Below, piece after piece: positions 4,828 to 23,578 of a stretch of 31,488 nucleotides of DNA. The DNA comes from a virus. Its lineage: Duplodnaviria > Caudoviricetes. Position numbers and translations under genes: made by a program. Numbering within the stretch: the stretch's first letter is position 1; each line of letters begins with the position of its first letter. The stretch is from positions 1 to 31,488 of IMG/VR virus record IMGVR_UViG_3300037424_000332; one strand, 5' to 3'. The notes beneath the pieces were generated by a model. It saw only the letters and a list, made by a program, of their open reading frames with translations, made no database searches and had not been told where the DNA came from.

Positions 4828-5963
4828 ATCGTTGGTATATAAGTTATTGGCTTAATAGAATAATCCACAAATTGCATCGGATAATTAGAGAATAAATCTT
4901 TAAATACATTCTCTAAATCTTTCCGTTCGTCACCTGTCACAGAGTTCATAAAGGAATAAGCATTGGTTAAGAGGTCGGCACCAAAACCGGCACCGATATC
5001 AACGCCCCTTAAGATTGGAGGCATCATAAACATTCTACCGATATTCTCCTGTACTGTCTTTTCAGTTACCTCGTATTGACGATCATAATTCTTTGCAGTG
5101 AAATCAATGAACTCAGGTTTTTCCTCGTCTGAATCAATATCCACTACCCATATTTTCGAGGTGTTCATGTCGCCCTGCATACGCTTAATCTCGTTGGCGC
5201 TATTCACCTGCTCGGTGTTATAGCGATCCGTTGGATCAACCGACCCATCAGTAAGTAACTTTGGTTTGATACCTTTGCGAACTAGCACCCCGGAAGGAAG
5301 GAAATTAAATTTTGCGTTACGATGCTTAACCGTTGATACACTCTCTTCAGTAAGCATATCCGTTATGATAGGATCAAAAGGCGAAGTAGGATATTCAAAG
5401 TCCCCGTCAGCGGTGTAGTAATAAACCTGTCCCAGGTAATTATCCGGGCCGCCGACTTCGGCAATCTCCACAGCAACTGTCAGAGGGTTGAAACGATTAA
5501 TGAACTTGACGTCTCCCATCCGAAATGTCCTGCCCGTGAGGTTTGTCCAGTCCGGGTGGATTGCTATTTTACCAGTGTAGTCTCCTGCTGTGTTAATCTC
5601 AATCCGGCATTGTTCAAATGGGATATTATAATAAGCATAAGGGACGGCATTATAATCGTACTTGACCAGACAGGCAAATCCGTTAAAACTCTTTAGGTCT
5701 TTAGCAAACTTACTTAGTAGAGAACTCGCACGCTCGTTACGATCGTTGATGATAGAATCAGAAAGTATCTGATCGGTGAATCCTGCTCCCCGGACAAACT
5801 TAACATAGATATCAAAGCAAGTCTTTCCGGTTCCGGAACTTGCGATTATCTCTAATACTTTCTGAGGATAGTCGTTACCGTCACCGTATCCCTTGATTCG
5901 TTTACTCCTGAGAAATACGTTCCGCTCTACCCTCGGTGCTGTTTTGGTGGCGGATACTCGCAT
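4824..5963 (-). CDS. Portal protein
   Basis: 379 aa with YGDGNDYPQ..EIIASSGTGKTC, GAGF, F(N)GFACLV, NFLPSG and MPPILRG, a portal-like pattern in head-module context. Confidence 0.75.
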   Translation of the reverse strand: MRVSATKTAPRVERNVFLRSKRIKGYGDGNDYPQKVLEIIASSGTGKTCFDIYVKFVRGAGFTDQILSDSIINDRNERASSLLSKFAKDLKSFNGFACLVKYDYNAVPYAYYNIPFEQCRIEINTAGDYTGKIAIHPDWTNLTGRTFRMGDVKFINRFNPLTVAVEIAEVGGPDNYLGQVYYYTADGDFEYPTSPFDPIITDMLTEESVSTVKHRNAKFNFLPSGVLVRKGIKPKLLTDGSVDPTDRYNTEQVNSANEIKRMQGDMNTSKIWVVDIDSDEEKPEFIDFTAKNYDRQYEVTEKTVQENIGRMFMMPPILRGVDIGAGFGADLLTNAYSFMNSVTGDERKDLENVFKDLFSNYPMQFVDYSIKPITYIPTI

Positions 5964-6469
5964 TATTTTTTCTGTTTACCAACTTTCTTAACTTTTGGCT
6001 CAATAACTACCGGCTCGGTTTTCACTTCAGCTTTCACCGGCTCAACAATGACAGTCTGTTTACCAACTTTCTTAACTTTTGGCTCAATAACTACCGGCTC
6101 GGTTTTCACTTCAGCTTTCACCGGCTCAACAACTACCGGCTCGGTTTTCACTTCAGCTTTCACCGGCTCAACAACTACCGGCTCGGTTTTCACTTCAGCT
6201 TTTACCGGCTCAACAATCACAGTAGGAATTACCGGCTTCTCCGGTGGAACTATCAGTGTCGGTTGTGGCTTTCTCGGTGGTACCGGTACATTAACCGGAG
6301 CTGTACGCCCGGGAATAACCTCAAAATATTTCTCCACTCCGGGTTGATTAGCCAGATACCACTCGGCCAGAGCATCAGTGAAATGTGGTGAATCATTAGT
6401 AACAGTCTTCGATGCGTCACCAAAAGCCTGAAGAAGTACACCTTTTTTTAATCTATAATTTTGTGCCAT
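5963..6469 (-). CDS. Low-complexity P/V/E/K-rich protein with tandem repeats
   Basis: Globular N-terminus (TDALAEWYLANQPG) followed by VEPVKAEVKTEPVV repeats. TAATG overlap with the portal start. Confidence 0.7.
   Translation of the reverse strand: MAQNYRLKKGVLLQAFGDASKTVTNDSPHFTDALAEWYLANQPGVEKYFEVIPGRTAPVNVPVPPRKPQPTLIVPPEKPVIPTVIVEPVKAEVKTEPVVVEPVKAEVKTEPVVVEPVKAEVKTEPVVIEPKVKKVGKQTVIVEPVKAEVKTEPVVIEPKVKKVGKQKK
5971..6222. repeat. Intragenic 42-bp-module repeat array
   Basis: The unit aactaccggctcggttttcacttcagctttcaccggctcaac starts at 6005, 6089, 6131 and 6173 (one mismatch in the last). A second unit (tctgtttaccaactttcttaacttttggctcaat) starts at 5971 and 6055. Confidence 0.95.
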
Positions 6470-6481
6470 AATTTTAAATTT

Positions 6482-6509
6482 AAAAGAAGAGGCTCGAAAG
6501 CCTCCCCTT
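6482..6509 (-). terminator. Intrinsic terminator after the capsid and tail tube genes
   Basis: Minus strand reads AAGGGGAGGCT-TTCG-AGCCTCTTCTTTT, immediately after the stop at 6512. Confidence 0.75.
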
Positions 6510-6511
6510 GT

Positions 6512-7132
6512 TTATTCACAGCATGGAGCCAATAAAGAATCCAATGCAATACGTGTTAATGCCAAAGTACCTCCTACAAAATATGTACGGGGTAACAGGG
6601 ATTCTTTAAGTGAATCCGAACATCCGGCAGTCAGGACATAACCTCCGAGCATCTCTGCATCATTGACGTTACGTTCGACAGCATTCAGCTCCAGTCCAAA
6701 ATCCCATCCCAGCACTTCAAAGACGGTCCTTCCGGCAACAGTGACACCATCATCTTTATTGTAGTTATTCTCGATGATCACCATGAACCGGCTATCCTTT
6801 GCATTTTCGATCCAGAGCTTATCTTCCGGTGTATTATCGAAGATACGAAATACAAACCCATGCTCCCAGGTCTTTTGATATTTAGACTTTACCATCGCTA
6901 TCGTGTGTTCATTGGATACGTTATACCCTTCGACACAGTAAGCATAGCAAGGCGGAGACGTGGTTTTTAGAACCAGTTGAGTAAGCAGTAGAGAGTTAGT
7001 AGGATCAAATGTGCTTAAATCTTTATCAACACAATCGTAGTTGATAAAATATGCCTTATCCTTTATACCTGGAACGAGGTTTGCGCAGTTCTTCAGGATA
7101 CAGGCAACTATTTCATTGCAGCCTATTGTCAT
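6512..7132 (-). CDS. Putative major tail (tube) protein
   Basis: 206 aa immediately after the capsid gene and co-terminated with it. Beta-rich, with FEVLGWDFGLE and PGIKDKAYFIN motifs. Confidence 0.55.
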   Translation of the reverse strand: MTIGCNEIVACILKNCANLVPGIKDKAYFINYDCVDKDLSTFDPTNSLLLTQLVLKTTSPPCYAYCVEGYNVSNEHTIAMVKSKYQKTWEHGFVFRIFDNTPEDKLWIENAKDSRFMVIIENNYNKDDGVTVAGRTVFEVLGWDFGLELNAVERNVNDAEMLGGYVLTAGCSDSLKESLLPRTYFVGGTLALTRIALDSLLAPCCE

Positions 7133-7135
7133 AAC

Positions 7136-8224
7136 TTACCTCCCGACCATAAAGAGACGATCGTCAATTATCTTAGCATCGAAAGCATCAACAGCCTCGA
7201 TCCTGTTGATACGGCTCCTTTGATCATAAAATGTATTTACATTATCAAACAATGTGGTACACATCATACCGATGACCAGGTTTGAAACAGTAGTGTAAAC
7301 TACCCTGTGAGGATCGTTCCATGAAGTAAGGTTATTCTCATAAGCCCTTATCCACTGATCCCACAACGGGATAGATACGATCTTGATACCGTCCCATGTA
7401 GCAAACTCAAGGCCGTTGACCATCAGTTTGTAGTCCTGAAATGCTGTACCGAGTGCCTGTAGTTGTCTGCGAAGTCTGTCCATCACCGAGCGGGTGACAA
7501 GAATAATCCTGTCAGGCTGTGCAGCCAGTTCAGAGATTGCATTGTCGATCAGTGTATTGACAGCATTGTAGGTCAATAGCGGTGTAGCCACTGACTGCTG
7601 AAGTGCGTATGTTACCTGTGTATTGCCGGGCATTGCATTCAACTGTAAAGGATTAACAGCATAGACAGCGGCCATCTGTTGAAAGAATCCATTAATGACA
7701 TTGAAATATCCAACGTCATAACCCGGCGTGATAACTCCTACCGGGAAGTTAGCAGCGGCCGTGTCGCCGAACCATACATGGCGAAGGATCATCTTCTCGA
7801 TGTCTTTTACCAGTATGTCGAGAATGAAAGCAAATATCTCAGTTTTGGTAAGATCATAAACCTCGACACCGCATTTCGTGGCCAGTGTCATCAGAGTGTC
7901 GTGAAGCTCGTCCACGCACATATCAATTATGATCTCCAAATATTTTGGTTCCCAGGTCTTTTCGACTGCTGGGTTTTCGAGGCACTGAGCCTCAGGATTA
8001 CAGGACTGAGCGGCTTTTCCTACCAGGCCAAATGTGCCGGGGATGATCCCAATCCTTTTGTCATTCTTGATCCCGGTTTTAATCGTATGAAATGCGGTTA
8101 TCCCTGGTGATTCAAGAACAGCGGTTACTACAAGTTCATTCAGCGAGCGGAGTTCATCAGCCGTGAAATGAAGTGCATCCAGATTGATTGTGTGCAAACA
8201 TGCTGGAGATGATTCGTGTGCCAT
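7136..8224 (-). CDS. Major capsid protein
   Basis: 362 aa directly after the Clp protease/scaffold. Motifs KTGIKN, VEKTWEPK, HVWFGD and INGFFQQ. A terminator lies one gene downstream. Confidence 0.8.
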   Translation of the reverse strand: MAHESSPACLHTINLDALHFTADELRSLNELVVTAVLESPGITAFHTIKTGIKNDKRIGIIPGTFGLVGKAAQSCNPEAQCLENPAVEKTWEPKYLEIIIDMCVDELHDTLMTLATKCGVEVYDLTKTEIFAFILDILVKDIEKMILRHVWFGDTAAANFPVGVITPGYDVGYFNVINGFFQQMAAVYAVNPLQLNAMPGNTQVTYALQQSVATPLLTYNAVNTLIDNAISELAAQPDRIILVTRSVMDRLRRQLQALGTAFQDYKLMVNGLEFATWDGIKIVSIPLWDQWIRAYENNLTSWNDPHRVVYTTVSNLVIGMMCTTLFDNVNTFYDQRSRINRIEAVDAFDAKIIDDRLFMVGR

Positions 8225-8226
8225 AA

Positions 8227-9360
8227 TTATTCTTTTTTAGATTTGATTTTTTCACCTATCTCTTTTGCTTTGGTAAGATCCACGTCACCGACCTTTTCCA
8301 AATTACCGAAGTTCTTTTGACGTGATGTCGGAACCCATGAGTTCTTTAGGTTCGTCAGCTCGGTTACAATACTCTGAGCGGCAACCTTAACTTTTTCGGC
8401 TTCTTCTTTAGCTACCTGAGCTTCTGTCTTAGCCGTTTCGGCTTCTGCTTTTGCGGTTTCAGCCAAAGCAACTTTAGCCTCCAGCTCGGCAATCTTTTCG
8501 TTAGCCAGTTCAAGTTCTGTTTTAGCGGCGGTAGGCTCTTTAACTTCCGTTACCACACCGCCAGTAATGACAATTGTTTTACCATCTGTCATTGTGAATG
8601 TTCCATCCGGAGCAGCTTTATCGCCGACTGCCGGAGCGCCAGATTCCTTTTCGAGCTTAAATTCATTGCCGTCTTTATCTTTCAGCGTCTGATCTTTAAT
8701 CCTCGAAAAATTTCCAATTTTGGCAATGGCACTGTCAAGTGTCGAGCCAAGTTTTTCAAAGAATGCTTTTTCGTCCATTTTAAAATTATTTTTGCGTTTA
8801 ATATAAGCATAAGCCACAACCGGCTCAATCACTTTAGTAGCAAATCCGAGAGATAGCATATCTTCAGCGGATAGTTTAGTATCTTCTTTCATGTATTCTG
8901 CCAGCCTGGATTTATCAGCCCCGGTCTTCTCGGCATAGAATTCAAGTATCTTTTCTTCTTCCTGTTTGAGGCTCTCGGCAAGTCTTACCAAGTCGCCGGA
9001 CTCATATTTATCGGCAAGGGTATAAGGCGGAATAAATGGATTATGAATCAGTCCATCGGCATTTTTCATCATCTCCCGTTCCGTGCCTGCCAGGAATACA
9101 ATAGTTGCTATTGAATAAACTTTTGATTCACCGATTGTCTTAATCTTTTTTCCGGAGTTAGTCAGCAGGTCATAAATTGCCCACCCCTCCTGCACGTCAC
9201 CACCTCTGGAATTTATCCGAACCGTTATGTCGGTTGCATCTTTATTCTCATCAAGAAACTCCGAGACGATCTTTGCAGAGATAGTATCAGAACCCTCTCC
9301 CATAAATGATTCAGGAAGAGATTCGCCAATATCGCCGTATATTTTAAGCACTGCTGCCAT
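8227..9360 (-). CDS. ClpP-like (S14) prohead protease with C-terminal scaffold-like coiled coil
   Basis: IYGDIG, RINSRGGDV.EG.AIY, YSIAT (catalytic Ser), LIHNP (His) and A...LSLGFA, then an Ala/Glu/Lys coiled coil. Start moved to ATG at 9360 (TAATG overlap with the upstream ORF). Confidence 0.9.
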   Translation of the reverse strand: MAAVLKIYGDIGESLPESFMGEGSDTISAKIVSEFLDENKDATDITVRINSRGGDVQEGWAIYDLLTNSGKKIKTIGESKVYSIATIVFLAGTEREMMKNADGLIHNPFIPPYTLADKYESGDLVRLAESLKQEEEKILEFYAEKTGADKSRLAEYMKEDTKLSAEDMLSLGFATKVIEPVVAYAYIKRKNNFKMDEKAFFEKLGSTLDSAIAKIGNFSRIKDQTLKDKDGNEFKLEKESGAPAVGDKAAPDGTFTMTDGKTIVITGGVVTEVKEPTAAKTELELANEKIAELEAKVALAETAKAEAETAKTEAQVAKEEAEKVKVAAQSIVTELTNLKNSWVPTSRQKNFGNLEKVGDVDLTKAKEIGEKIKSKKE

Positions 9361-9512
9361 TAGGGCATCCCTCCGCACTCAAAGAGTTGGTAGTAAAGCA
9401 TGTTATCGACTGCATGGTCTTCGTTATACATATAATACTCATCGTGGTATAAGAACTGTTCCATTTGAATTGTCGAAAGATTATTGTACGCAAAACACAG
9501 TGTCTCACTCAT
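9360..9512 (-). CDS. 50-aa acidic Tyr-rich hypothetical protein (not in ORF track)
   Basis: MSETLCFAYNNLSTIQMEQFLYHDEYYMYNEDHAVDNMLYYQLFECGGMP*. A-rich upstream region, and the stop overlaps the protease ATG (TAATG). Confidence 0.6.
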   Translation of the reverse strand: MSETLCFAYNNLSTIQMEQFLYHDEYYMYNEDHAVDNMLYYQLFECGGMP

Positions 9513-9530
9513 AGCTTTTAATTTAAACTA

Positions 9531-9582
9531 TAAAATTAAATATGTTTGATGGATAGTTTACTAACACTAATTAGTTAGTAAA
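9531..9582 (-). promoter_or_regulatory. Inverted repeat plus degenerate -7 box upstream of the head operon
   Basis: TTTACTAAC (9557-9565)-N8-GTTAGTAAA (9574-9582), with minus-strand TAATTTTA at 9531-9538. Confidence 0.4.
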
Positions 9583-9611
9583 TAAAAAAGCCCCGGATTT
9601 CTCCGAGGCTT
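9581..9611 (-). terminator. Intrinsic terminator
   Basis: Minus strand reads AAGCCTCGGA-GAAA-TCCGGGGCTT-TTTTATT. Confidence 0.85.
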
Positions 9612-9666
9612 ACTTGACTTGACTTGCTATGACCTGACGAATCGAGTCATGCCATGATACGCCGAA
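9612..9666. repeat. Degenerate pentamer-periodic tract
   Basis: acttg acttg acttg ctatg acctg acgaa tcgag tcatg ccatg atacg ccgaa: 11 units, with position 2 always a pyrimidine and position 5 G in 9 of 11. Confidence 0.65.
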
Positions 9667-9676
9667 ATTTTAACTT

Positions 9677-10543
9677 TCAAGATATTTTATGAATATTAAA
9701 AAATAACATTTCATTAAAATGCTTATATGGATTTATTTCGCAATTTATAACATCTCCACTCTTTGCATTAAATTTATGTCGCAATAATTCGCTTAATGCT
9801 TTATTAGCTACAGTTGGACTCTTATGTTTTGCATCACCTTTTCCTACACTATATTTAAAAAAAGGAACTCCTGGTTTGGGATTAAATACTATATATGGCG
9901 TTTCATTTCCTGTTAAATTAACGAATGCCACATTTAATATTCCATTGATACAAGATAATCCATATTCTTGCATAAATTGCCATCCAATACACGATGTATA
10001 GGATTTTGTATTAGCTCTAAAATCTGATGTTAAATTCCTGCCTATTTTACCTTCAGGAATCGTCCAATTAAATAACTGATCTTTTTGATGTAACATAGTT
10101 TCTGTTTTTATAGGTTTATTTCTTCTCGGCATTTTTGCTGCCATTTCAATTAATTCATCGTCTGTTAATTCATCTTTATGGCTATGATATTCCTTTAGTT
10201 TACGTTTCTCATCCATAAAAAATGGATGCTTAGATAGTTTTAAAGCATTTTTCGCCTGATCGCTATATAGATCATCGTTATTAAATACAGGATAATCTTT
10301 AATTAATTCTACTGCCATCCAATAGTCGGGTTCTTTCATACAAAAATTCCATCTATAAGTTGGTTTAGAGACCCATCCTGTTCTTTCAATTAAAGAGCAA
10401 TTTATTAATTTACGCCATAATTTACTATCTACACCTGATTCTTTTTGTAAGGAAGAGGCCGTTGCCTGCACTCCTGTATCTAATAATAGATATAGATACT
10501 CAAGCGATCCAAGTAATTTTCTTACTTCATCTGGTATTTTCAT
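9677..10543 (-). CDS. AT-rich hypothetical protein, moron-like independent transcription unit
   Basis: Long ORF with probable start MKIPDEV at 10543 (the TTG at 10585 lies inside a leader hairpin). It has its own promoter and terminator and a possible N-terminal winged-helix-like segment. Confidence 0.7.
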   Translation of the reverse strand: MKIPDEVRKLLGSLEYLYLLLDTGVQATASSLQKESGVDSKLWRKLINCSLIERTGWVSKPTYRWNFCMKEPDYWMAVELIKDYPVFNNDDLYSDQAKNALKLSKHPFFMDEKRKLKEYHSHKDELTDDELIEMAAKMPRRNKPIKTETMLHQKDQLFNWTIPEGKIGRNLTSDFRANTKSYTSCIGWQFMQEYGLSCINGILNVAFVNLTGNETPYIVFNPKPGVPFFKYSVGKGDAKHKSPTVANKALSELLRHKFNAKSGDVINCEINPYKHFNEMLFFNIHKIS

Positions 10544-10556
10544 ATCCTTATAATTT

Positions 10557-10636
10557 AAAACCCCCTCAAGTTCTGCGAGAAACAAGAGGGGATTTATGGT
10601 TTAAACCGAATTTCTTATATATGTCCTCGCAGAAAC
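10557..10636 (-). promoter_or_regulatory. Structured 5' leader, attenuator/antisense-switch-like
   Basis: Hairpin CCCCTC/GAGGGG (10586-10591 with 10562-10567) followed by TTTT. Its loop contains CTCGCAGAA (10571-10579), perfectly complementary to TTCTGCGAG (10626-10634) at the transcript 5' end. Confidence 0.6.
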
Positions 10637-10642
10637 ACGATA

Positions 10643-10672
10643 CAAATATAAACAATTTATTTAATAAACAAA
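10643..10672 (-). promoter_or_regulatory. Bacteroidota-type primary-sigma promoter (-33/-7)
   Basis: Minus strand TTTG (10669-10672)-N18-TATATTTG (10643-10650). Confidence 0.65.
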
Positions 10673-10679
10673 TAATTTC

Positions 10680-11192
10680 TTATAAATCTTTTAAAATTCC
10701 TTCGCCGTGAATTACTAATTTACACCCTTTTGCTGTTAATGCTGTCTTCAAATGTCGAAAATGCGTCTTAATCTTTGCACAAAGTTTATGATCTAAATGC
10801 TTATGATTAGTCAAATCCACTCCATATAAATGAATCTCATCAGCTCCGTAAACCCTCCAAGCGATCTGGCAAGCCACAAAGGGACTGCAATAAGATTTAT
10901 TATATTGTGGCAAATCCAAATTACAAAACTGATCCGGGTAGTTATGCAAAAACTCAATCTTCTGGAATTCCGGCCTTGAATCCCAATTAACTATCTGTGA
11001 ATAGAAAGCTATCGGACGACTATTCTCAATAGTTATAAGTCGTTCCCCGGCAAAGACACTCCGCTTATCTAAGCAAACAATGACATCCGATTTATAGTAA
11101 CGCCAAATATCATTTACTCCTATTGAAAGATCGTACCCGTCAGGATTAAATAGTGAAATTGACGGGCCGAGGCCAAGTACTGCAACTCTCAT
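10680..11192 (-). CDS. MAF_flag10/DUF115-like (MptE-like, GT29/GT42-related fold) protein
   Basis: VAVLGLGPSI, IGVND, VCLD, S...A.QIA...GADEIHLYGVDL. Confidence 0.7.
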   Translation of the reverse strand: MRVAVLGLGPSISLFNPDGYDLSIGVNDIWRYYKSDVIVCLDKRSVFAGERLITIENSRPIAFYSQIVNWDSRPEFQKIEFLHNYPDQFCNLDLPQYNKSYCSPFVACQIAWRVYGADEIHLYGVDLTNHKHLDHKLCAKIKTHFRHLKTALTAKGCKLVIHGEGILKDL

Positions 11193-11872
11193 AATCTTCT
11201 TAGTCCACGATTCCAGTTACCCTCTATCTCCGGCAGTCCACGCCTGCGCCTGTCGCTCCGAGTGCCTGCCGCATTATGAACTATGAACCCGCCCGGCTCA
11301 CCTTCGTTATTAACGATACTTAGTCCCGAATATTCAATAAGTATATCCAGTCCCTGCTGTTTTATTGCGTTCATTGCCTGAAAGCATGGAGATCCGTGAT
11401 GGATATACGGCGGGAACTTAAAATAATTAGCCACATTGATAAGTTGAAAAAATGGATGTAGGTATTTCACTGCTGCATCCCTCCACTCCTGCGAGTGGTT
11501 AGTCTTACCAAATCCCCTGTTATCGACATAATCAAATGCACCTACACCGTAAGTCTCTTCATTCATCCTGCTTAACATATCTTCGACAGGGCTTTTAAGC
11601 ATGACAATATCTGAATCAAAAATCAGAGCGTATTTTGTTTTTACCAGCCTTATCCCTGCGTCCATGCCGTTGCCGTGTCCGATGTTATATCTATACACCC
11701 CGACAGTAGTTATATCAGAAGCGAGGCTTAGAACATAATGATAGCACGGATCAGTTACCTTTGAACCATCGATAATAATAATTCTCATGTCAGGATGAAA
11801 TCTTCGGACTGATTCATAAGCACGCTGTACCAGTTCTTTTGTATTTGAGCAGACGCATACCCCGGTTATCAT
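11189..11872 (-). CDS. Glycosyltransferase, GT-A fold (GT2-like)
   Basis: IIIIDGS, NIGHGNGMDAGI, DxD in IFDSDI, YLHPFFQLIN. Confidence 0.85.
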   Translation of the reverse strand: MITGVCVCSNTKELVQRAYESVRRFHPDMRIIIIDGSKVTDPCYHYVLSLASDITTVGVYRYNIGHGNGMDAGIRLVKTKYALIFDSDIVMLKSPVEDMLSRMNEETYGVGAFDYVDNRGFGKTNHSQEWRDAAVKYLHPFFQLINVANYFKFPPYIHHGSPCFQAMNAIKQQGLDILIEYSGLSIVNNEGEPGGFIVHNAAGTRSDRRRRGLPEIEGNWNRGLRRL

Positions 11873-12636
11873 CTTCGTCTCTGATTAAGTAATCCATGCC
11901 GCTGCACCCCGGCACCGCCGTAAAATCTCTCATAAAGGTTTTTATCTTCACCAATCAGCGCACTAAGAATATTCATATTAAAATCCTGTTTCATGTTCAT
12001 TGCACGACCATGACCCGCCCCGATCCCGGCTCTCCCCGGTAGTCCTTTTATACCTATCGATAATCGGTTCTCATCAAACAGGTTCACCCCCTGCCGATTA
12101 GCCAGCATAAAGAAATGTGCATCAATAAACTTTGCCGGAAAGCACTCCCGGAACATTGGTATTGCCTCAGGCGTGAATGCTATCTGAAACAGGCTGGCAT
12201 GGCAGTTATTGTTGTTATTAAAATACCTGCGAAAAAACACATTATAATAAATAGTATTTATCTCACCGACTAATCTGAAGTTACGCATCTGATACATCAT
12301 CCGCTCTAGATAAATAGACCTGTAATAATCATCGTCCTCAATAATAAATATCGCCTCAATATCTTCCTCCCTATAATTTTTTAAGAGGGTGTTTATTCCT
12401 ACCGACAGGTTTCGTCCCTGTGTATTTAGTCCGGGGTTCCATAGCGGGATAGGATAGCATTTTATTATTGTCCAGTTCTCACGAAAGTTATCATTTATAA
12501 CATCCGTTGTACGAGGGTAACAATCATCAATAATTATCCATACTACTTTCCCTGTGTATGTCTGACGTTTCATAAATAGAGAACACAGGTTAATTTGTGC
12601 CTGTCGCCCGCCTGTTGGTGTAATCAAAACTATCAT
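11869..12636 (-). CDS. Glycosyltransferase, GT-A fold (GT2-like)
   Basis: LITPTGGR, WIIIDD, IIEDDDYY...YL. Start at 12636 by ATGA overlap. Confidence 0.8.
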   Translation of the reverse strand: MIVLITPTGGRQAQINLCSLFMKRQTYTGKVVWIIIDDCYPRTTDVINDNFRENWTIIKCYPIPLWNPGLNTQGRNLSVGINTLLKNYREEDIEAIFIIEDDDYYRSIYLERMMYQMRNFRLVGEINTIYYNVFFRRYFNNNNNCHASLFQIAFTPEAIPMFRECFPAKFIDAHFFMLANRQGVNLFDENRLSIGIKGLPGRAGIGAGHGRAMNMKQDFNMNILSALIGEDKNLYERFYGGAGVQRHGLLNQRRR

Positions 12637-13367
12637 TGCCAAGTATAAATTAAATTTCCTTCGCCTGTTAAGGGTCTTTCTTCGTAAACCGTGAAGTTAG
12701 GCTTGAGGTTTAATATTTCATCTTTCGTAAGATTCTCCGGCGCAATAAAGTTACAAGTCAAATAACCCATAGCAGATTTATTAATAACATTTTCTATATA
12801 GATATTCTGGTAGTTCCTGCCAACTTCTGAAAAAGCATAATTACTGATACAAAGATCATACTTCCCTCTTTCTAGCTTGTCAGGAGAATTATATTGAACA
12901 TTAGTAATATAAAGCCTATTAAGATATTTTTCAGTAAGCGCAAGAACTTCCGGTAAGTCGATTATCTTATAAGAACGAGGTTTAAATATATCACATATAA
13001 TCTTACACTGCCCTCCGTATCCACCGCCTATCTCAACTATATCTAAGTCATTCAGACTGCCGAACCAAAGCACTAAGTCCCCCAAAACCTTAATATACCG
13101 GAGCGTAGTCGGTGACATATCCTGCATAATACCTGGATAAAACCTTTTATGAGGTTTGCCAACGAGATCATTAGTCACAAACTTATCCATACTATTTAAG
13201 AGTACAGGGGCATTTCGCTGTATCTGCTCAATATATCCCATCCCTTGTTCATAGGATACGTGTTCGAGAATCGGGGTGTAATCCGGGTGACGTTTGAATG
13301 TCTCAAATACTAAATCATTCTCTGCTGCCTGCTGGCAGATTCTTAAATAAGCACTGTAATCTATCAT
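12633..13367 (-). CDS. Putative sugar O-methyltransferase (class I SAM-dependent)
   Basis: IVEIGGGYGG, IIDLPEV, YDLCISNYAFSE. Start MIDYS at 13367 by ATGA overlap. Confidence 0.8.
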   Translation of the reverse strand: MIDYSAYLRICQQAAENDLVFETFKRHPDYTPILEHVSYEQGMGYIEQIQRNAPVLLNSMDKFVTNDLVGKPHKRFYPGIMQDMSPTTLRYIKVLGDLVLWFGSLNDLDIVEIGGGYGGQCKIICDIFKPRSYKIIDLPEVLALTEKYLNRLYITNVQYNSPDKLERGKYDLCISNYAFSEVGRNYQNIYIENVINKSAMGYLTCNFIAPENLTKDEILNLKPNFTVYEERPLTGEGNLIYTWQ

Positions 13368-14137
13368 ATCTTTATCCAGTTTTGACAATAAACATCCTGC
13401 CAATCATCCGTAACAGCCGGGCCAAACCACCGGGCAGGGGCATAAACTATTTTATCTCTTTGATTAAGATAAGCACCCCACCACGAAAATGACGAATTAG
13501 CAATTATATGATGTGTACATTTTGCCATAGTGTATAAGTCCTCGTAGTCCTCCTGCCCTTCAATGAAGATAACTCTTTCGCCTTTTATAGTCTCTTTGCA
13601 CCAGCCTATATCATCAGAGAAAACGAGTATGTGATCTATCTTTACCTTAGTTTCTAAATCATCTAAGGCGGTTTTATAATATTCATACGGCAAGGCCGGA
13701 AGAAACTGACACATAAATTCGTTAAGATAGTCACCCCGCCGGACATGGATCGAGACGCTATTTTCAAATTCATACTTCCTCTTTGATCTGTTCTCGAATA
13801 GCTTTATGACTTCTTTTTTATGATTTGCAAAATATTTCTCACTCTGGAAGAATCCCTGTAATACCATCCCTTCACGGTACGGCACTGGATCAAAGTTGAA
13901 TCTCGGTTCCATGTATCTTATCTGTTCATAGTCGGGTCGTTCGACCATGTTTTCACATAATACATTTAGATTACTAAATACATTACTTATATAATGACTT
14001 GATCCATGACCCTGATTGATATTAGGATTACCCATAAAGAAAGCGCACTTATCATTATTGTCAAGTGCCAGTGAGTATGTCGCTGCAATCTGAAACATCT
14101 GATTGCCGAGGCCTCCTTTTAAATGTGCTGTTATCAT
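13364..14137 (-). CDS. Alpha-1,2-fucosyltransferase, GT11 family
   Basis: GGLGNQMFQ, GFFQSEKYF, HVRRGDY (GDP-fucose motif), VFSDD and NSSFSWWGAYL. Confidence 0.92.
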   Translation of the reverse strand: MITAHLKGGLGNQMFQIAATYSLALDNNDKCAFFMGNPNINQGHGSSHYISNVFSNLNVLCENMVERPDYEQIRYMEPRFNFDPVPYREGMVLQGFFQSEKYFANHKKEVIKLFENRSKRKYEFENSVSIHVRRGDYLNEFMCQFLPALPYEYYKTALDDLETKVKIDHILVFSDDIGWCKETIKGERVIFIEGQEDYEDLYTMAKCTHHIIANSSFSWWGAYLNQRDKIVYAPARWFGPAVTDDWQDVYCQNWIKI

Positions 14138-14634
14138 ATCCTTGCTGTTAATATGTCCTCTGCCTGAAAACCATACTCAAAACAAAATTTATATTCCGGA
14201 TTAATTTTAAGTAACTTCGATCTGATTGTTTCAACATCAAACCCAAATATCCCAAAGCATCGTATATCATCTATCAATATAGTATGAGTTTTAATCTTAT
14301 GCTTACCAATTATATCCAGCTCTTTCATCAGAGGCGATTCGTTTTTCTTTAGCGTACTCGACCCGTGAGCATCAAGCCAAAATGTGGCAGGCTCTTTTAT
14401 CATTCTCAAAAGATCACCGAGTACCTCACTTGAATCACCCAGAATAAGATGAACATTATCGTGGTTTGCGAATCGCTTAACACACATATTGTACAGTTCT
14501 TTAGATAGTTCTATTGAAAAGACTGTCTTAAACCCTGCATCCAAAGCGTACTGAATACCGTCCCCGACCAGCGTACCAGTCTCAATAAAAATATTATTCG
14601 GGTATTTCTTAAATACTTCTTTACCTGTTGGCAT
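14134..14634 (-). CDS. Class I SAM-dependent methyltransferase-like protein
   Basis: FIETGT..GDG, SIELS, GDSS, FWLDAH, ILIDD. Confidence 0.75.
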   Translation of the reverse strand: MPTGKEVFKKYPNNIFIETGTLVGDGIQYALDAGFKTVFSIELSKELYNMCVKRFANHDNVHLILGDSSEVLGDLLRMIKEPATFWLDAHGSSTLKKNESPLMKELDIIGKHKIKTHTILIDDIRCFGIFGFDVETIRSKLLKINPEYKFCFEYGFQAEDILTARI

Positions 14635-15242
14635 TATCTGGGGTGTGAATTAAATATACGTTGAACATTACTTACATAAGGCTCGTAATCATTGACCTTC
14701 AATTCAATGTCAGAATATGTCACGCTTTGAGTAGCGCAAATAGGATCAGTTATAAAACAGTTAAATCGTTCCTGTACCTCGACTACATAAAAAACATCTA
14801 TCACAGGCCGATGATCCGTTCCTTCACAGCTCTGCATAAATTTATTATAATTATGCTGAATATAATTAACTACTTCCCATGTATTAAAAATAATCGCATG
14901 GGCGCAATACGCTCCCTTCATCCGAAATAGATTAGCGGAATACCGTTGTACCTCCCTCACGTTGGTAGCTCCGAGCCAAAGCATATCCCAATTCTTTGGT
15001 AGTTGTGACATTGCCTGCTCGACCACGCTCCACGATTGCAGCAGTACACAGTCATCCTCAAAGATCACAAACGGCAGCTCTGTTTGTTTTCTTATCGCTG
15101 CAAGGTGCGAGGCGGAGCAGCCAAACCATCCCGGAGTAGTCTTTATTGCATTGAACCTCTCGACTTCAAAAGGAAAGTTATTGAGCCGAAAGTCATCCAT
15201 TCGCTCCGGCCTGTCTTTCAGGTTAATTACTGTTGCCTTCAT
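14634..15242 (-). CDS. Glycosyltransferase, GT25 family
   Basis: VINLKDRPER, RFNAI, GCSASH, IFEDD, WDMLWLG and AHA. Confidence 0.85.
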   Translation of the reverse strand: MKATVINLKDRPERMDDFRLNNFPFEVERFNAIKTTPGWFGCSASHLAAIRKQTELPFVIFEDDCVLLQSWSVVEQAMSQLPKNWDMLWLGATNVREVQRYSANLFRMKGAYCAHAIIFNTWEVVNYIQHNYNKFMQSCEGTDHRPVIDVFYVVEVQERFNCFITDPICATQSVTYSDIELKVNDYEPYVSNVQRIFNSHPR

Positions 15243-15858
15243 ATAATTGTAATTTACTTTCGGGATACTTGTCTGTAAAACTTGTTATAAGATAAGATGT
15301 GACCTTAGATAATAATTCAAATCCTTTATCAACTTTTTTACGAATCATTATGCCAGTCCAGGTCTTTGTGCTTAGTAAGGTGTAAATATTAAAGCCTTTG
15401 AAATCAATTATGTCATAGGAGTATTCCTTTATCCCTTCGCTGTCGTGATAGATGATAATATCAAACCTATCCTTTAAAGCATTTATTGATAGTGACCTGT
15501 TGCATGTCCACGAATCAACGAATAGTAGATTAGGCCGATCCGAGGGTAACTCCAGTCGCTTATAATAGTCTGATATTTCATCCTTCTGCTCCTGCAATAA
15601 TTCGTGAAATGAAGTACCTATATCTACCCCGGTCATCTGATGATAGATAAATCTCGCCGTGACCTTATCCCGCATAATATCTACCCATTCCATACTGTTT
15701 TCAATACCTATGTATTTAGTTTTATATTCCAGGATGACAGGTGTTGAGTGTATTCCTATCCCTAACTCCAGAGTGAATTTCGGGGCATAAGCACCCATCG
15801 CCGCCCGGATTGCCGGGATATGTGTCTTGACTTCCCAGTCACAGATTACCCAGGTCAT
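15223..15858 (-). CDS. Methyltransferase-like protein (class I SAM fold)
   Basis: LELGIGIHSTP, GIEN..EW, LLFVD, IIYHDSE. Confidence 0.6.
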   Translation of the reverse strand: MTWVICDWEVKTHIPAIRAAMGAYAPKFTLELGIGIHSTPVILEYKTKYIGIENSMEWVDIMRDKVTARFIYHQMTGVDIGTSFHELLQEQKDEISDYYKRLELPSDRPNLLFVDSWTCNRSLSINALKDRFDIIIYHDSEGIKEYSYDIIDFKGFNIYTLLSTKTWTGIMIRKKVDKGFELLSKVTSYLITSFTDKYPESKLQLYEGNSN

Positions 15859-16490
15859 ACGCCACCCCTTCCCAGCCGGTGCAGTGTGCCGCCCCAGTGA
15901 TGCTTAACGTAATGAATACCATTATACCAGGGATCGTTCTCGTTCGGCCCGCCGGAATAGTCATCATGTACCCAAGGCTCATCCTGAATAATAAGTATCC
16001 CTCTCTCGTGCATAAACCGCATAGGAGCCATCATCGGGGACTGATAGAAATTAGGCATCGGGTATTGTAAGGCTATCTTACGATTAATTAATGCACAAGC
16101 TGGGTGAAGATAGTTGATCCCTTCCGTGTCATTATCTTTTCTGTTACCCATATACACCGCTCCAATACCGTAACTCTCCGGACGGAGCTTACTCTGTAAG
16201 TCCTCAATGAATCCTGGGTTATAGATAATAAGATCAGAGTCGAGAAGCATAATCTGATCCGTTTCTATATGCTGAAAACCATAAGCCATCCCCGGCCCGT
16301 GATGTATGTTATAATCAAAATGAGTTATTGTCACGTTGTACTTATCTGCAAATCCTTTTATCTGCTCAAAATGCGCTGTGTCTGATCCATCGATAACCCA
16401 GTAAGGAATATCGTAATACTTTCGAAAACCAGAAAGCAGTCTTTCTAATAAATCAGGTGTATTGTAATGAACTGTTAATGCTGTTACCAT
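15855..16490 (-). CDS. Glycosyltransferase, GT-A fold (GT2-like), paralog of 11189..11872
   Basis: YNTPDLL, VIDGS, NIHHGPGM, LLDSDL, YGIG, YLHPACALIN and HHWGGT. Confidence 0.85.
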   Translation of the reverse strand: MVTALTVHYNTPDLLERLLSGFRKYYDIPYWVIDGSDTAHFEQIKGFADKYNVTITHFDYNIHHGPGMAYGFQHIETDQIMLLDSDLIIYNPGFIEDLQSKLRPESYGIGAVYMGNRKDNDTEGINYLHPACALINRKIALQYPMPNFYQSPMMAPMRFMHERGILIIQDEPWVHDDYSGGPNENDPWYNGIHYVKHHWGGTLHRLGRGGV

Positions 16491-17140
16491 CTGTTTGGAT
16501 TTACGTTAATATTTGAATTATGACATACATAGTAAAGTGGAATTGTTATCTTTTTTCTCTTTTCGAGAGGCAGTAAATATTTCTCAATCATATACCAGTC
16601 GTGTCCGTACTTATTTCCCCATTTGACTTTTACCTTCTTTCGGTGAGAAATTGTGCTGGTACCTATCATACAAATTATAGGCTGTACTTCACGAGGCAGG
16701 ACGACCTCACCATCGGCAATATAGTCATCATAATAAATCCAGTCCAGAGCATAGGTATTGAAATTATCACTAATGATCTTCAGGTGGTCATTGCCGAACA
16801 TATCGTCGTGGTCGAGGTAACAGATTATCTCACCTTTTGCCATCTTCAGCCCGGTATTACGTACCACCCCGCTATAATGATCCTGCTTCGGGATGAGTTT
16901 AAAATGAATATTAGCGATGTCTTTATAGTACTGCTCATATATTTCCTTTGCTCTCTCGCTGCCGTCTGCAATTATTATAAGCTCGCAGTCCTTAAATGTC
17001 TGATAACAGAATGAATCCACTGCACGGATAAACTTTCGCTCCGGGTCGGGTGCGCTCTTAATTACGAACTGATCTGTATTTGGCTCCGGGACTGTCTCAT
17101 AGGGAGTTAAACAGACTGGCATGATAACCGATATTCTCAT
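16484..17140 (-). CDS. Glycosyltransferase family 2
   Basis: ISVIMP, RAVDS...QT..ELIIIADGS, RNTGL..AKGEIICYLDHDD. Confidence 0.9.
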   Translation of the reverse strand: MRISVIMPVCLTPYETVPEPNTDQFVIKSAPDPERKFIRAVDSFCYQTFKDCELIIIADGSERAKEIYEQYYKDIANIHFKLIPKQDHYSGVVRNTGLKMAKGEIICYLDHDDMFGNDHLKIISDNFNTYALDWIYYDDYIADGEVVLPREVQPIICMIGTSTISHRKKVKVKWGNKYGHDWYMIEKYLLPLEKRKKITIPLYYVCHNSNINVNPNRW

Positions 17141-17361
17141 AGATTCATAGATTTTATTATTCGATGTACTGTCATTTCACTTATATTGAAGTCCTCGCTG
17201 GTATAAAATACTGAAGTAGTGACATTATTATTTTGTTTACGATAAGCATCATACCTGCAATAGATGGCGTAATGCCTCAAAATACTTATCGGAATAAATC
17301 CCATCTTTGTTTCTTCTTTTACCGTCTGAAGATTATTATTTATATACTCAAAGCGTGTCAT
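17137..17361 (-). CDS. Small HTH protein, Mor-like regulator candidate
   Basis: C-terminal SEDFNISEMTVHRII recognition-helix pattern. Confidence 0.6.
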   Translation of the reverse strand: MTRFEYINNNLQTVKEETKMGFIPISILRHYAIYCRYDAYRKQNNNVTTSVFYTSEDFNISEMTVHRIIKSMNL

Positions 17362-17380: not shown

Positions 17381-19417
17381 TTAGATTGTAGCACGAACTT
17401 TTATTTTATTTACACTATCTGTCCGGACATTTATATCCTCAACGGTTACTATCGGGGCTGGCATCTTCGCTAATGCCCTTGCAATATCATCAGCCGTTAA
17501 TAGATTCTGATTTGGTATTGCGTTTAGTTGTGACTGACTTAGTTGCGGTTGTGTCAGGATTGATGACCCTGCCGATTGTGCGAATGTCCTCTGCGCCGGG
17601 GCTGATGCGGAAATAGCAGTCGGAGTCGAACCGCCTCCACTACCGCCAGGAACCTTTACGGCAATTATCCTTTTTACATTCGCTAGTCCTGCTGCCACCG
17701 CTGCCGCTGCCGCTGCCGCACCAAGTATCGGGCCTACTCCCGGAACGCCTGCAAGAGCTTTATAAGCTGCTGTTGCTGCTGCATACGTGTTAATTGTCGT
17801 TTCTGCTATTGCAGCCGCCTTTCCGATTGCTGTATTCTCTCCAAAGATAGTAGCTAAGTTACCTGCAAAGTTTGCACCCAGAGCTAATTTTTCCTCACTT
17901 GTTAGTTTCGCAATCTCTAGTTCTACTGCTGCATATTTTTCCTGAATACCAGCAACAGCCATACCCGTCTCTTCTGCAACCCTGATTTCTTCATTCTTTT
18001 TTACATTTAATAAACTGCGTAAATATTCAACGTCCGCCGTTGTTTTGTCTTTTAATATCTGCAAGTCCGCCGCTGCTTTCTCTTTGGCTGCATCCTCATC
18101 ATTAGTACCGCCCTTAGAAGTAGAGGTTTTTGCTAATCTATTTATTTTTATCTGATCGCTGTAATACTCTTTAGTAATAGTATTTCTTTCTTTTAGTAAT
18201 CCATTTAGTTTATCTTCTACAACTTCCTGTGTAGCTGTCATGGTAGATATTGCTATAAGGTTATCAATTTCCTTATTGACTGATATAATTTTTTCAGATG
18301 CCAATTTATTCGCAATTTCATCAGCGGCAATAGCAGCGTTTTTTATCTCTAATGCAGTCGCTCCCTGCTTTCCTGCTATTGCACGTTGCTCTGTTAACTT
18401 AGCTTCTAACCCTTCCCATTCAGTCTCTTTTGCAAGCTTCTCGTCAGATATAGCCTCTGATTCTTGGAGGAGTTTATTATATTCTAATGTCCATTTCACT
18501 TTATCCTTATAGCCTTTAAGACTTTCTAATAAGGCATTATTGTCTTTAATCATTAATATAGATGACTTCTTCTGTTCTTCATAATATGCTCTTTGTTCAT
18601 CTGTTAAGCCGCCAAAAGCTAAATATCTTTCCGCTTCAGCCCTATTAGCCGCTCCAGTGTTAACACCACCTAAAGCTCGTTTTATTGCATCTTTACGAGC
18701 TTCTTCTGCATCTTTAGAATATCCCGCAAATCCGTATTTTAATTTATCAGCTGACTTAAGAAATAAATCCATATTCTCTTTTGCATCCTTCCATACTTTT
18801 GCAATCACAGCAATGGCAGCAGTCACTAATCCCATAACTCCACCACCCTTAACTAATGACATAAGTCCATCAGATAACTGATTAACACCTTCTGTTACTT
18901 TTCCAAATGTACCGCCGGCGACACTGCCAATCTGACTAAATGCAGAGCTCACAGCCTCTCCGTAATTTCCTACATTTAAACGGTTATCATGTATCCCTTT
19001 ACCAAAAGCATCAAGCCCTTTTTTAGCTTCATCAACCCCTTTTGAAAGTTTAATATATTTATCAGTCAAAGTATAAGTGCCATCGGCATTTTTTACCATC
19101 ATACCACCTTCCAATTTTAAGGCAGTTTGCATTAACTGATGCTGCCGTAAAAGTTGTTCGTATGATCCTGACTTAGCTTTATTCGCTTTCGTTGCTAAAT
19201 CAACTAATTTTGTAGCATCACTGACCGCTTTTTTTGAATCCCGATATGCTTTGTTGGTTAATTCAATCTCCTCACGGGATTTAAATTGACCCTTTTTAAG
19301 TTCATCAACTGCTAATTTTGCATCTTCATTGGCTTTTTTGGCCTCTATTAACAGGTCAATATACTCTTTGAGATTGCTCTCAATATCTATTATATACTTC
19401 TTTGTCTCGTCTGCCAT
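17381..19417 (-). CDS. Tail tape measure protein
   Basis: 678 aa, helical and Ala/Lys/Glu-rich. Motifs GSYEQL and RLNVGNY, and a C-terminal GKAAAIAETTINTY..GPILGAAAAAAAVAAGLANVKRI. Confidence 0.85.
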   Translation of the reverse strand: MADETKKYIIDIESNLKEYIDLLIEAKKANEDAKLAVDELKKGQFKSREEIELTNKAYRDSKKAVSDATKLVDLATKANKAKSGSYEQLLRQHQLMQTALKLEGGMMVKNADGTYTLTDKYIKLSKGVDEAKKGLDAFGKGIHDNRLNVGNYGEAVSSAFSQIGSVAGGTFGKVTEGVNQLSDGLMSLVKGGGVMGLVTAAIAVIAKVWKDAKENMDLFLKSADKLKYGFAGYSKDAEEARKDAIKRALGGVNTGAANRAEAERYLAFGGLTDEQRAYYEEQKKSSILMIKDNNALLESLKGYKDKVKWTLEYNKLLQESEAISDEKLAKETEWEGLEAKLTEQRAIAGKQGATALEIKNAAIAADEIANKLASEKIISVNKEIDNLIAISTMTATQEVVEDKLNGLLKERNTITKEYYSDQIKINRLAKTSTSKGGTNDEDAAKEKAAADLQILKDKTTADVEYLRSLLNVKKNEEIRVAEETGMAVAGIQEKYAAVELEIAKLTSEEKLALGANFAGNLATIFGENTAIGKAAAIAETTINTYAAATAAYKALAGVPGVGPILGAAAAAAAVAAGLANVKRIIAVKVPGGSGGGSTPTAISASAPAQRTFAQSAGSSILTQPQLSQSQLNAIPNQNLLTADDIARALAKMPAPIVTVEDINVRTDSVNKIKVRATI

Positions 19418-23307: not shown

Positions 23308-23578
23308 CTAAATAAGTATAAATTAGGTTGTAAAACATTGAGGCAAATATCCCGGCAGAAACAAAAAACAGAAGTTCAATAATATCAAAAGGCTTAGTAA
23401 ATAGAAAATACCACAGCATCACTTGGCCGGTAAAACATTTATAGCATCCCCCTAATGGTTTACATAACCAGTCCGGCAGCTTGCATATCTGTTTCTGATA
23501 CCATTCAAATATCATCCCTTCTTCACCGAGGGCGCAAAACATATAAGTGATTAAGGATATTTTGAGTATGTCTATCAT
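23294..23578 (-). CDS. Small membrane protein with a CxxC motif
   Basis: Hydrophobic 94 aa with KPLGGCYKCFTGQV. Confidence 0.65.
   Translation of the reverse strand: MIDILKISLITYMFCALGEEGMIFEWYQKQICKLPDWLCKPLGGCYKCFTGQVMLWYFLFTKPFDIIELLFFVSAGIFASMFYNLIYTYLDEDR

Follow-up and report, generated by a model that had tools for sequence, protein, structure and literature searches.

A ten-gene island of predicted glycan-building genes lies inside the virion operon of a tailed phage, in a 31.5-kb piece of DNA (IMG/VR record IMGVR_UViG_3300037424_000332, 31,488 nt, analysed over its whole length and called the window below) that has every gene on the minus strand. The island consists of ten minus-strand open reading frames (ORFs) between positions 17140 and 10680, labelled, in the direction in which they are read, J, I, H, G, F, E, D, C, B and A. 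It is made up of a fixed C-(B)-A core, located directly before the protease and capsid genes, and of a hypervariable cassette upstream of the core. The reading we favour, with a probability of about 0.6, is that the island carries out a late glycosylation of virion proteins in the host cytoplasm, giving a variable glyco-serotype.

Searching IMG/VR with the capsid protein yielded 76 loci, chosen without regard to the island and including near-duplicate genomes. The interval from a small helix-turn-helix (HTH) gene, which follows the tape measure gene, to the protease gene is complete in 22 of the 76, and contains C and A in 22/22 cases and B in 21/22. Thirty loci extend 2,800 nt or more upstream of the protease gene, and all of them have A and C, and 29 have B; fifty extend 1,200 nt or more, and A is present in 48 of these, while L010 and L065 hold other ORFs and then end. 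Chance does not explain the island, because this arrangement is kept across dozens of relatives, as the synteny comparison proposed in a first-pass annotation of the window has now borne out. Mean pairwise identity is 55% for A, 58% for B and 53% for C, compared with 58% for the protease and 68% for the capsid; judged by presence and by identity, the core is retained as tightly as the virion genes.

The cassette behaves in the opposite way. Loci found with C were added, and 51 loci were dereplicated to 30 by C sequence, which together with the window makes 31 phages. Between the tape measure gene and C these phages carry from one to seven genes, 140 in all, belonging to 64 BLAST families; there are 28 distinct cassette sets, and 313 of the 465 pairs of phages share no family, although families were split at 35% identity and both family and set counts may be inflated. 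The overlap of cassettes between phages is unrelated to the identity of their capsids (Spearman -0.04). The family of J, a frequent first gene, occurs in 9/31 cassettes, the window's own counted, and the closest cassette, that of L038, has the window's order minus H. B is present in 28 of the 31 phages.

Pfam was run on 57 cassette representatives, 21 of which had no match at E 0.01. The transferases recognized were of the GT2, GT8-like, GT11, GT92, GT4-like and MUCI70-like types, and they were accompanied by many methyltransferases, a sugar C-methyltransferase, epimerase/dehydratases and RmlD-like, DegT-like and PglD-like enzymes, as well as by a B12 radical SAM (S-adenosylmethionine) enzyme, a GNAT protein and an aspartate-decarboxylase-like gene. 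Cassettes with the latter gene and with the B12 radical SAM enzyme (L071:4300-4918 and L047:1763-2884) suggest non-sugar substituents or C-methylation on the product. In the first-pass annotation the ten genes had been taken as a single pathway using host nucleotide sugars. This needs to be amended on both counts: what is fixed is a core of two to three genes, whereas the cassette is swappable and its GT11 (fucose) gene and three methyltransferases are strain-specific; and the use of host nucleotide sugars holds for the window only, since relatives carry the epimerase/dehydratase, RmlD-like, DegT-like, PglD-like and sugar C-methyltransferase genes mentioned above.

The genes of the island are tightly coupled. 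As had been noted in the first-pass annotation, they overlap: from the HTH gene, which overlaps J by ATGA, to the last island gene all ten junctions do so, eight of them in the ATGA/TAATG manner (seven ATGA, one TAATG), one by 7 nt and one by 20 nt. This count presumes that ORFs 12633-13403 and 11869-12642 begin instead at in-frame ATGs, located at 13367 and 12636, respectively. The absence of transmembrane helices was likewise confirmed, none of the ten proteins having a Kyte-Doolittle 19-mer of at least 1.8 (maximum 1.19), and so was the absence of a flippase, polymerase, GtrA or nucleotide-sugar synthase, none of which was found by Pfam among the 40 ORFs of the window. Wzx/Wzy or ABC export genes were found neither in the island nor in the cassettes of its relatives, where only 2 of 252 distinct island-interval proteins have one marginal hydrophobic segment and none is multi-pass. 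One match of the soluble GT2 protein J is labelled 'GtrB-like' in PHROGs, because the GT2 domain is common to both.

Core protein A is a single domain of 170 residues. The top structural match of its model is the catalytic domain of the Maf flagellin O-glycosyltransferase 5mu5 (Z 13.0, root-mean-square deviation 3.1, 160/170 residues aligned), and Foldseek puts CstII first. The designation of A as MAF/DUF115-like in the first-pass annotation is thus upheld by the model, which folds like Maf and CstII, but hardly by sequence: the match to Pfam PF01973 (MptE-like) has an E-value of only 0.099, the MptE/HPPK family profile gives 12.9 bits against a cut-off of 34.6, and no sequence match was found in the PDB. 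At 90% identity the family of A falls into 540 clusters; contigs among the best 120 reach up to 47.5 kb. Residues S103, D126, H130 and H144 are invariant in 120/120 homologues, and position 42 is D in 103 of them and N in 17. D/N42-S103-D126 are spaced 61/23, and D272-S334-D357 of a tested Maf 62/23, a match of spacing only; an acidic-Ser-acidic spacing is probably common to related folds.

In that Maf, D272, S334 and D357 are essential, and Maf makes Ser/Thr-O-Kdo (Kdo, 3-deoxy-D-manno-oct-2-ulosonic acid) in E. coli (bioRxiv 2020.06.03.131540). Maf enzymes have a three-domain architecture (PMC11339370). From its model, A is predicted to be a transferase of cytidine monophosphate (CMP)-ulosonates, e.g. 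CMP-Kdo. A different function, in which A is a pyrophosphokinase or the enzymes modify a host protein or small molecule (e.g. a defence protein or a metabolite), seems very improbable to us. The fold of A is indeed that of HPPK/MptE (Z 11.2) and of thiamine pyrophosphokinase (Z 8.2), and its weak Pfam match is MptE-like; however, A always stands beside glycosyltransferase domains and is twice fused to them, and a hypervariable multi-sugar cassette is hard to square with a fixed intracellular target.

Core protein C matches GT2 weakly by sequence (E 0.013) and is a GT-A glycosyltransferase by structure (predicted local distance difference test, pLDDT, 89). An acidic motif at residues 102-105 of C is invariant. 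Its best structural matches, with Z 17.4-16.7, are WrtF, TarS, CgT and SpsA, all tied, and in the model the fold of C identifies neither donor nor acceptor. The nearly constant gene B has a paralogue in the window, I, with 27% identity and invariant columns in common.

The remaining genes of the window's cassette, listed in Table 1 with the other features discussed, were assigned with varying support. Protein D scores 82.8 bits against TIGR04371 (cut-off 44), and its start at 13367 gives an ATGA overlap. Neither H nor F has a substantial match in Pfam, PHROG or NCBIfam, and their calls rest on look-alikes in the ESM Atlas: the clusters nearest to H are 94-100% viral, and its structure has a template-modelling (TM) score of 0.61 to Methyltransf_24, while for F the feature score against a cluster of class I SAM methyltransferases is 0.97 and the TM score to part of an FkbM protein is 0.87. 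The families given in the first-pass annotation therefore stand to different degrees. Three of the four GT2 genes and methyltransferase D are above cut-off, and the GT11 gene matches with E 5e-31; the fourth GT2 gene is such by structure, the GT25 gene is below cut-off, and H and F are look-alikes.

Table 1. Position and basis of assignment of the island genes and of the surrounding features in the window.
Feature	Position	Strand	Basis
Tape measure protein, bounding the island upstream	17381..19417	-	phrog_9483 E 6e-14; 19 nt to HTH gene
Small HTH-like gene between tape measure and cassette	17137..17361	-	weak HTH match; in 22 complete intervals
J, GT2 glycosyltransferase, frequent first cassette gene	16484..17140	-	PF00535 E 8e-14
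I, GT2 glycosyltransferase, paralogue of core gene B	15855..16490	-	PF00535 E 3e-8
H, predicted class I SAM methyltransferase, mostly viral family	15223..15858	-	ESM Atlas
G, GT25-like glycosyltransferase	14634..15242	-	PF01755 E 4e-4, below cut-off; phrog_2835 (glucosyltransferase) E 2e-7
F, predicted class I SAM methyltransferase, mostly viral family	14134..14634	-	ESM Atlas
E, GT11 (alpha-1,2-fucosyltransferase family)	13364..14137	-	PF01531 E 5e-31; phrog_2644 E 3e-49
D, NanM-type putative sugar O-methyltransferase, likely start 13367	12633..13367	-	TIGR04371
C, core GT-A fold glycosyltransferase, likely start 12636	11869..12636	-	model and invariant motif
B, near-core GT2 glycosyltransferase	11189..11872	-	PF00535 E 2e-13
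A, core minimal Maf/CstII-fold protein, 170 aa	10680..11192	-	model pLDDT 94.8
AT-rich 302-aa ORF, insert after the island, outside the island proper	9677..10585	-	GC 0.305, GC3 0.19
Terminator-like hairpin	9611-9588	-	10-pair stem and T run; consensus match only
ClpP-type head maturation protease, downstream boundary	8227..9378	-	PF00574 E 2e-24
Major capsid protein, candidate glycan acceptor	7136..8224	-	28% to capsid gene of Bacteroides phage BS-TP3
Conserved virion protein after capsid, putative tail tube, candidate acceptor	6512..7132	-	phrog_21217, weak 'virion structural protein'

The window reads, in order, small and large terminase, tail genes, tape measure, the small HTH gene and the island, followed by genes for the ClpP-type protease, the capsid, a conserved virion protein, the portal, a receptor-binding protein and lysis. 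The position assigned to the island in the first-pass annotation, after the tape measure and HTH genes and before the protease and capsid genes, was correct, but the 302-aa ORF and the terminator-like hairpin had been omitted. Because these two features separate the island from the protease gene, the island would end the terminase-tail transcription unit, and the hairpin is predicted to close this terminase-tail-island unit; late expression is inferred from the overlap-coupling to it. A promoter scan of the window gave 41 hits against 40.7 expected, which is the level of chance. The 302-aa ORF has no Pfam, PHROG or NCBIfam match, and no BLAST match to it was shown in the 76 capsid-selected loci; in relatives its slot holds other morons (endonuclease VII, GIY-YIG, HTH).

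According to the reading we favour, the island would act late in lytic infection and, in the host cytoplasm, decorate virion proteins with a sugar chain that differs from strain to strain. The role of A would be to transfer an ulosonic acid from a CMP-linked donor to Ser/Thr of a virion protein; the likeliest donor is CMP-Kdo, since it is produced by diderm hosts and accepted by Maf enzymes. Conserved inner sugars would then be added by C and B, and the cassette enzymes (transferases J, I, G and the GT11 enzyme E; methyltransferases H, F and D) would add and cap the outer sugars, resulting in a glyco-serotype for each phage. The reverse order, in which C primes and A caps, would be nearly as possible. 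The capsid protein and the protein encoded after it are abundant candidate acceptors.

C together with a Maf-like gene recurs in virion operons outside the lineage of the window. Of the 221 viral matches to C the best 80 were considered, and they include 65 new loci, 45 from the window's own lineage, 19 from a second lineage and 1 from a third. The second lineage (loci L081, L148, L156, L164, L170-L174 and L179-L189) has an unrelated capsid. Its capsid gene is followed by genes for a small acidic protein and a phrog_4603 'sialyltransferase', then by variable genes and C, and finally by a sulfotransferase-like gene and the neck genes. Its variable genes belong to the same families as those of the window's lineage, mostly at 49-76% identity. 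The phrog_4603 gene, with a weak PF01973 match, is present in all 15 of the 19 loci that are long enough. Its kinship with A rests on a common motif order and on two sequences matched by both profiles; a direct comparison of the profiles of A and of the phrog_4603 family fell short of significance (probability 2.6%). The tail tubes of the second lineage end in Ser/Gly-rich tails, and are a better acceptor candidate than any protein of the window.

In the third lineage, represented by L166 (G028), positions 6294-10825 hold four cassette families of the window's lineage and a B-C fusion directly before the terminase gene. We take the terminase, portal and capsid genes of this phage to be crAss-like; their PHROG labels give no taxon. 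Its C nests among those of the window's lineage in a quick tree (support 92), and a transfer of the cassette between unrelated phages is probable from these sequences. In addition, the neighbourhoods of 14 more distant matches to C in genome bins were inspected. L091 and L093 have terminase, A, C and more glycosyltransferases in that order; L086 and P0159 are fusions of C and a PF01973-like domain, the order of the two being reversed between them; in L087 and L090, C is paired with phrog_4603; in L094 the cluster with C is on the strand opposite to myovirus genes; and in L084 C is near a terminase. The neighbourhoods in L088, L089, L092, L095 and L096 give no clear context for C.

Candidate acceptors were sought among the virion proteins. 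An N-terminal [ST]PxC motif is present in 67/74 capsids and absent from that of BS-TP3, a temperate Bacteroides phage whose virion genes follow the same order, whose slot is occupied by a SusD-like gene and which has no homologue of the island. As a required acceptor site the motif was rejected, because it is missing in six basal loci that bear the island (L068, L129, L155, L167, L168 and L178), and the idea is further weakened by its co-variation with terminal cysteines of the tube. Within the lineage, the capsid motif is mostly present where the tube has its C-terminal Cys-Cys and missing where it has not, which may point to cross-linking of virion proteins by disulfides or metal. No PDB sequence relative was found for the putative tube protein. 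The Pro/Lys/Glu-rich protein at 5963-6469 (minus strand), between the tube-like gene and the portal gene, was discarded as an acceptor because its tail is poor in Ser/Thr and a homologue exists in BS-TP3; it has tandem Val/Glu/Pro/Lys/Thr repeats and a Lys-rich end, and lacks the extra N-terminal CxxC domain of most of its relatives. The Bacteroidota sequon D[ST][AILVMT] occurs 0-3 times per virion protein and was uninformative.

Several findings weigh against virion proteins as the target. The acceptor search found no site, [ST]PxC being absent from basal members with the island, and the capsid and tube C-termini of the window's lineage are without a Ser/Thr-rich tail. A is a single 170-aa domain lacking the extra domains of Maf (632 aa), and HPPK (Z 11.2, 132 residues aligned) and the lipooligosaccharide sialyltransferase CstI (Z 9.6) closely trail Maf among its structural matches, so that the fold of A is no proof of a protein acceptor. 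The best structural matches of C act on glycans, e.g. teichoic acid or polysaccharide. Identity of A tracks that of the capsid (rho 0.63; B, rho 0.57) better than identity of C does (rho 0.19), which would be expected of an enzyme facing the acceptor, but is explained equally well by linkage alone. The slot takes unrelated morons (the 302-aa ORF here, endonucleases in relatives, the SusD-like gene in BS-TP3), and position by itself is therefore weak evidence. A tblastn search with C and A found no match in 50,697 phage records, and so gave no homology link to the proven mycobacteriophage enzymes. Finally, a C homologue with 50% identity (L083:5899-6591) lies among housekeeping genes in a Bacteroidales bin, its neighbours being glutamyl-tRNA synthetase, aminotransferase and ribonucleotide reductase genes; from this context it is possibly a captured phage gene, or one with a cellular role.

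Many O-antigen and core glycosyltransferases are soluble, and the lack of helices is thus also compatible with remodelling of the host surface. During a long lytic or carrier infection, soluble enzymes could modify lipid-linked units of lipopolysaccharide core, O-antigen or capsule on the inner side of the membrane, which would hide receptors and so guard against superinfection or keep progeny from adsorbing again to debris. The cassette families resemble those of O-antigen loci, A shares its fold with CstI and CstII, which modify lipooligosaccharide, L083 is a cellular-looking copy of C, and BNR and pectate-lyase-like domains in the receptor-binding proteins of relatives point to glycan receptors. 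A host-surface role has also been proposed by Benler et al. for a late-module glycosyltransferase of Gratiaviridae (PMC8008677). Even so, we regard this explanation as unlikely: no cassette has a membrane partner, coupling to late genes leaves little time for renewal of the surface, lysogeny genes were found in 0/11 near-complete genomes (see below), and the core is kept across unrelated virion lineages and in three operon positions, which fits a phage-made acceptor better than variable host glycans. Strong variation among relatives is seen in the region of the tail protein encoded at 23575-25401 (minus strand; Fib_succ_major, LRR and Lcl-like domains) and in the receptor-binding genes that follow the portal gene, with their BNR and pectate-lyase-like domains.

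The host is likely a member of the Bacteroidota, as had been supposed in the first-pass annotation, on evidence that is indirect. The portal protein matches 148 phage records, 145 of them named after Bacteroides, Phocaeicola, Parabacteroides, Cellulophaga or Tenacibaculum. A scan covering 49 of the 64 parts of the genome-bin collection gave six contigs of the window's lineage, four in three Bacteroidales or Rikenellaceae bins, one in a Proteobacteria bin and one in a Clostridia bin. Three long binned contigs showed phage-type genes and no recognisable host flank in the stretches read, and binning is consequently weak evidence for the host. The same phage genome occurs in IMG/VR and in a Bacteroidales bin (L116-L117, G020; L038, G004), and that bin holds three different members of the lineage. 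One sequencing run, a sediment metagenome, contains the whole window and may be where it came from; no RNA run was among those listed for it.

Eleven genomes of the window's lineage are at least 90% complete, three of them with terminal repeats. Tyrosine integrase, serine recombinase and S24 repressor (PF00589, PF07508, PF00717) were found in 0/11, with positive controls, and a thymidylate-synthase homologue also in 0/11, with the control positive in 10/14. These absences argue against lysogenic conversion and DNA glycosylation. In the latter case the enzymes would add sugars to modified bases before packaging; phage GT-A enzymes are known to build oligosaccharides on DNA, and their clusters can lie near structural genes (bioRxiv 2023.12.21.572611), but the known routes need a hydroxylated base provided by a thymidylate-synthase homologue or a dioxygenase. 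The 2-oxoglutarate oxygenase PF13640 was found in 0/13 genomes and a C5 methylase in only 3/13; Tet_JBP (PF12851) was found in 0/11, but its control gave no signal and a divergent dioxygenase may have been missed. No DNA polymerase was present among 134 ORFs scanned from five genomes. A TET-associated glycosyltransferase (PF20691) does occur in 2/15 records (L109:7314-10934, minus strand, G005; and G027:37743-38402, minus strand), that is, in a minority of genomes and outside the island. In G005 it is accompanied by two radical SAM genes just before the terminase gene. No TET or C5 methylase was found in either genome, and in both the region is a possible DNA-modification module. As an explanation of the island, DNA hypermodification appears very improbable.

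Virion glycosylation, as claimed in the first-pass annotation, is thus the best reading of the island, in view of its conservation, of the absent lysogeny and DNA-modification initiator genes, and of the Maf-like fold; the acceptor search was empty, and the less likely host-glycan reading stands beside it. There is a precedent in mycobacteriophages, whose own enzymes glycosylate the capsid and the tail tube (PMC12363180, PMC12619734), as reported for Che8 gp110, Corndog gp38 and Myrna (PMC12363180, PMC12619734, PMC12894461 and PMC12582341, citing Freeman et al. 2023). Both systems place soluble glycosyltransferases in a tailed phage, and the mycobacteriophage acceptors, capsid and tail tube, are the candidates here. 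Unlike it, the present predicted system has a likely diderm Bacteroidota host, a core enzyme of Maf fold and an island of 3-10 genes with a swappable cassette; it lacks the Ser/Thr C-terminal tails which hold the mycobacteriophage acceptors, and the tblastn result for C and A leaves room for remote homology. With the Maf enzymes of Magnetospirillum (5mu5), Geobacillus and Clostridium (bioRxiv 2020.06.03.131540, PMC11339370) A shares the fold of the catalytic domain, a nearly equal spacing of its putative triad and a predicted cytoplasmic action without export machinery, but A is single-domain, has no flagellin and no profile or PDB sequence match, and is coupled to chain-extending glycosyltransferases.

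Bacterial O-antigen and capsule loci and flagellin glycosylation islands combine a conserved core with exchanged, hypervariable glycosyltransferase, methyltransferase and sugar-modifying genes. The island and its relatives resemble the O-antigen and capsule loci in having variable glycosyltransferase, methyltransferase and nucleotide-sugar genes as a cassette; they differ in the absence of flippase, polymerase and lipid-carrier initiator, in their location in a phage virion operon and in methyltransferase families that are mostly viral. Giant viruses such as chloroviruses and Mimiviridae (PMC4691112) also encode glycosyltransferases, and the nucleotide-sugar enzymes of the island's relatives add to the likeness; these are, however, eukaryotic Nucleocytoviricota, whereas the island sits in tailed phages of 43-48 kb, and the comparison is one of gene content, not of enzyme homology. 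GtrABC serotype conversion and the Gratiaviridae (PMC8008677) provide further phage-borne glycosyltransferases, in the Gratiaviridae likewise in a late module and in Bacteroidota, but the island phages have no integrase, repressor or membrane component, and their enzyme set is far larger and variable.

In the literature found, with most subscription papers outside the search, virion glycosylation of bacterial viruses is shown only in a few mycobacteriophages, and neither this lineage nor a Maf-like enzyme within a phage virion operon is described. In a salt-marsh study, phage glycosyltransferases are mentioned in general terms only (PMC13477221). In another study ten other phages were stained and no glycoprotein was seen (PMC12894461); the trait is therefore not universal. 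The new elements are the core-plus-cassette design, the minimal Maf-like enzyme and the cassette exchange between unrelated phages, the target being predicted only. A more far-reaching version of virion glycosylation can be put forward tentatively: a mobile phage system in which a minimal Maf-like Kdo/ulosonate transferase, perhaps the smallest protein O-glycosyltransferase of its fold, and C would prime virion proteins, and interchangeable extension cassettes, moving between unrelated virion lineages, would diversify glyco-serotypes outside animal hosts as O-antigens are diversified.

The island may offer compact enzymes for glyco-engineering, and the question can be tested with three small soluble genes in E. 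coli. In mycobacteriophages, virion glycosylation has been linked to antibody evasion, according to papers citing Freeman et al. 2023. If the reading preferred here is true, sugar coats would be a general and diversifying trait of phages, kept by an environmental lineage and exchanged with unrelated phages. They would then be selected by something other than antibodies, for which we infer proteases, adsorption to particles, grazers or host recognition as candidates, and many phage glycosyltransferases now considered 'auxiliary metabolic' would be reclassified as virion-maturation genes.

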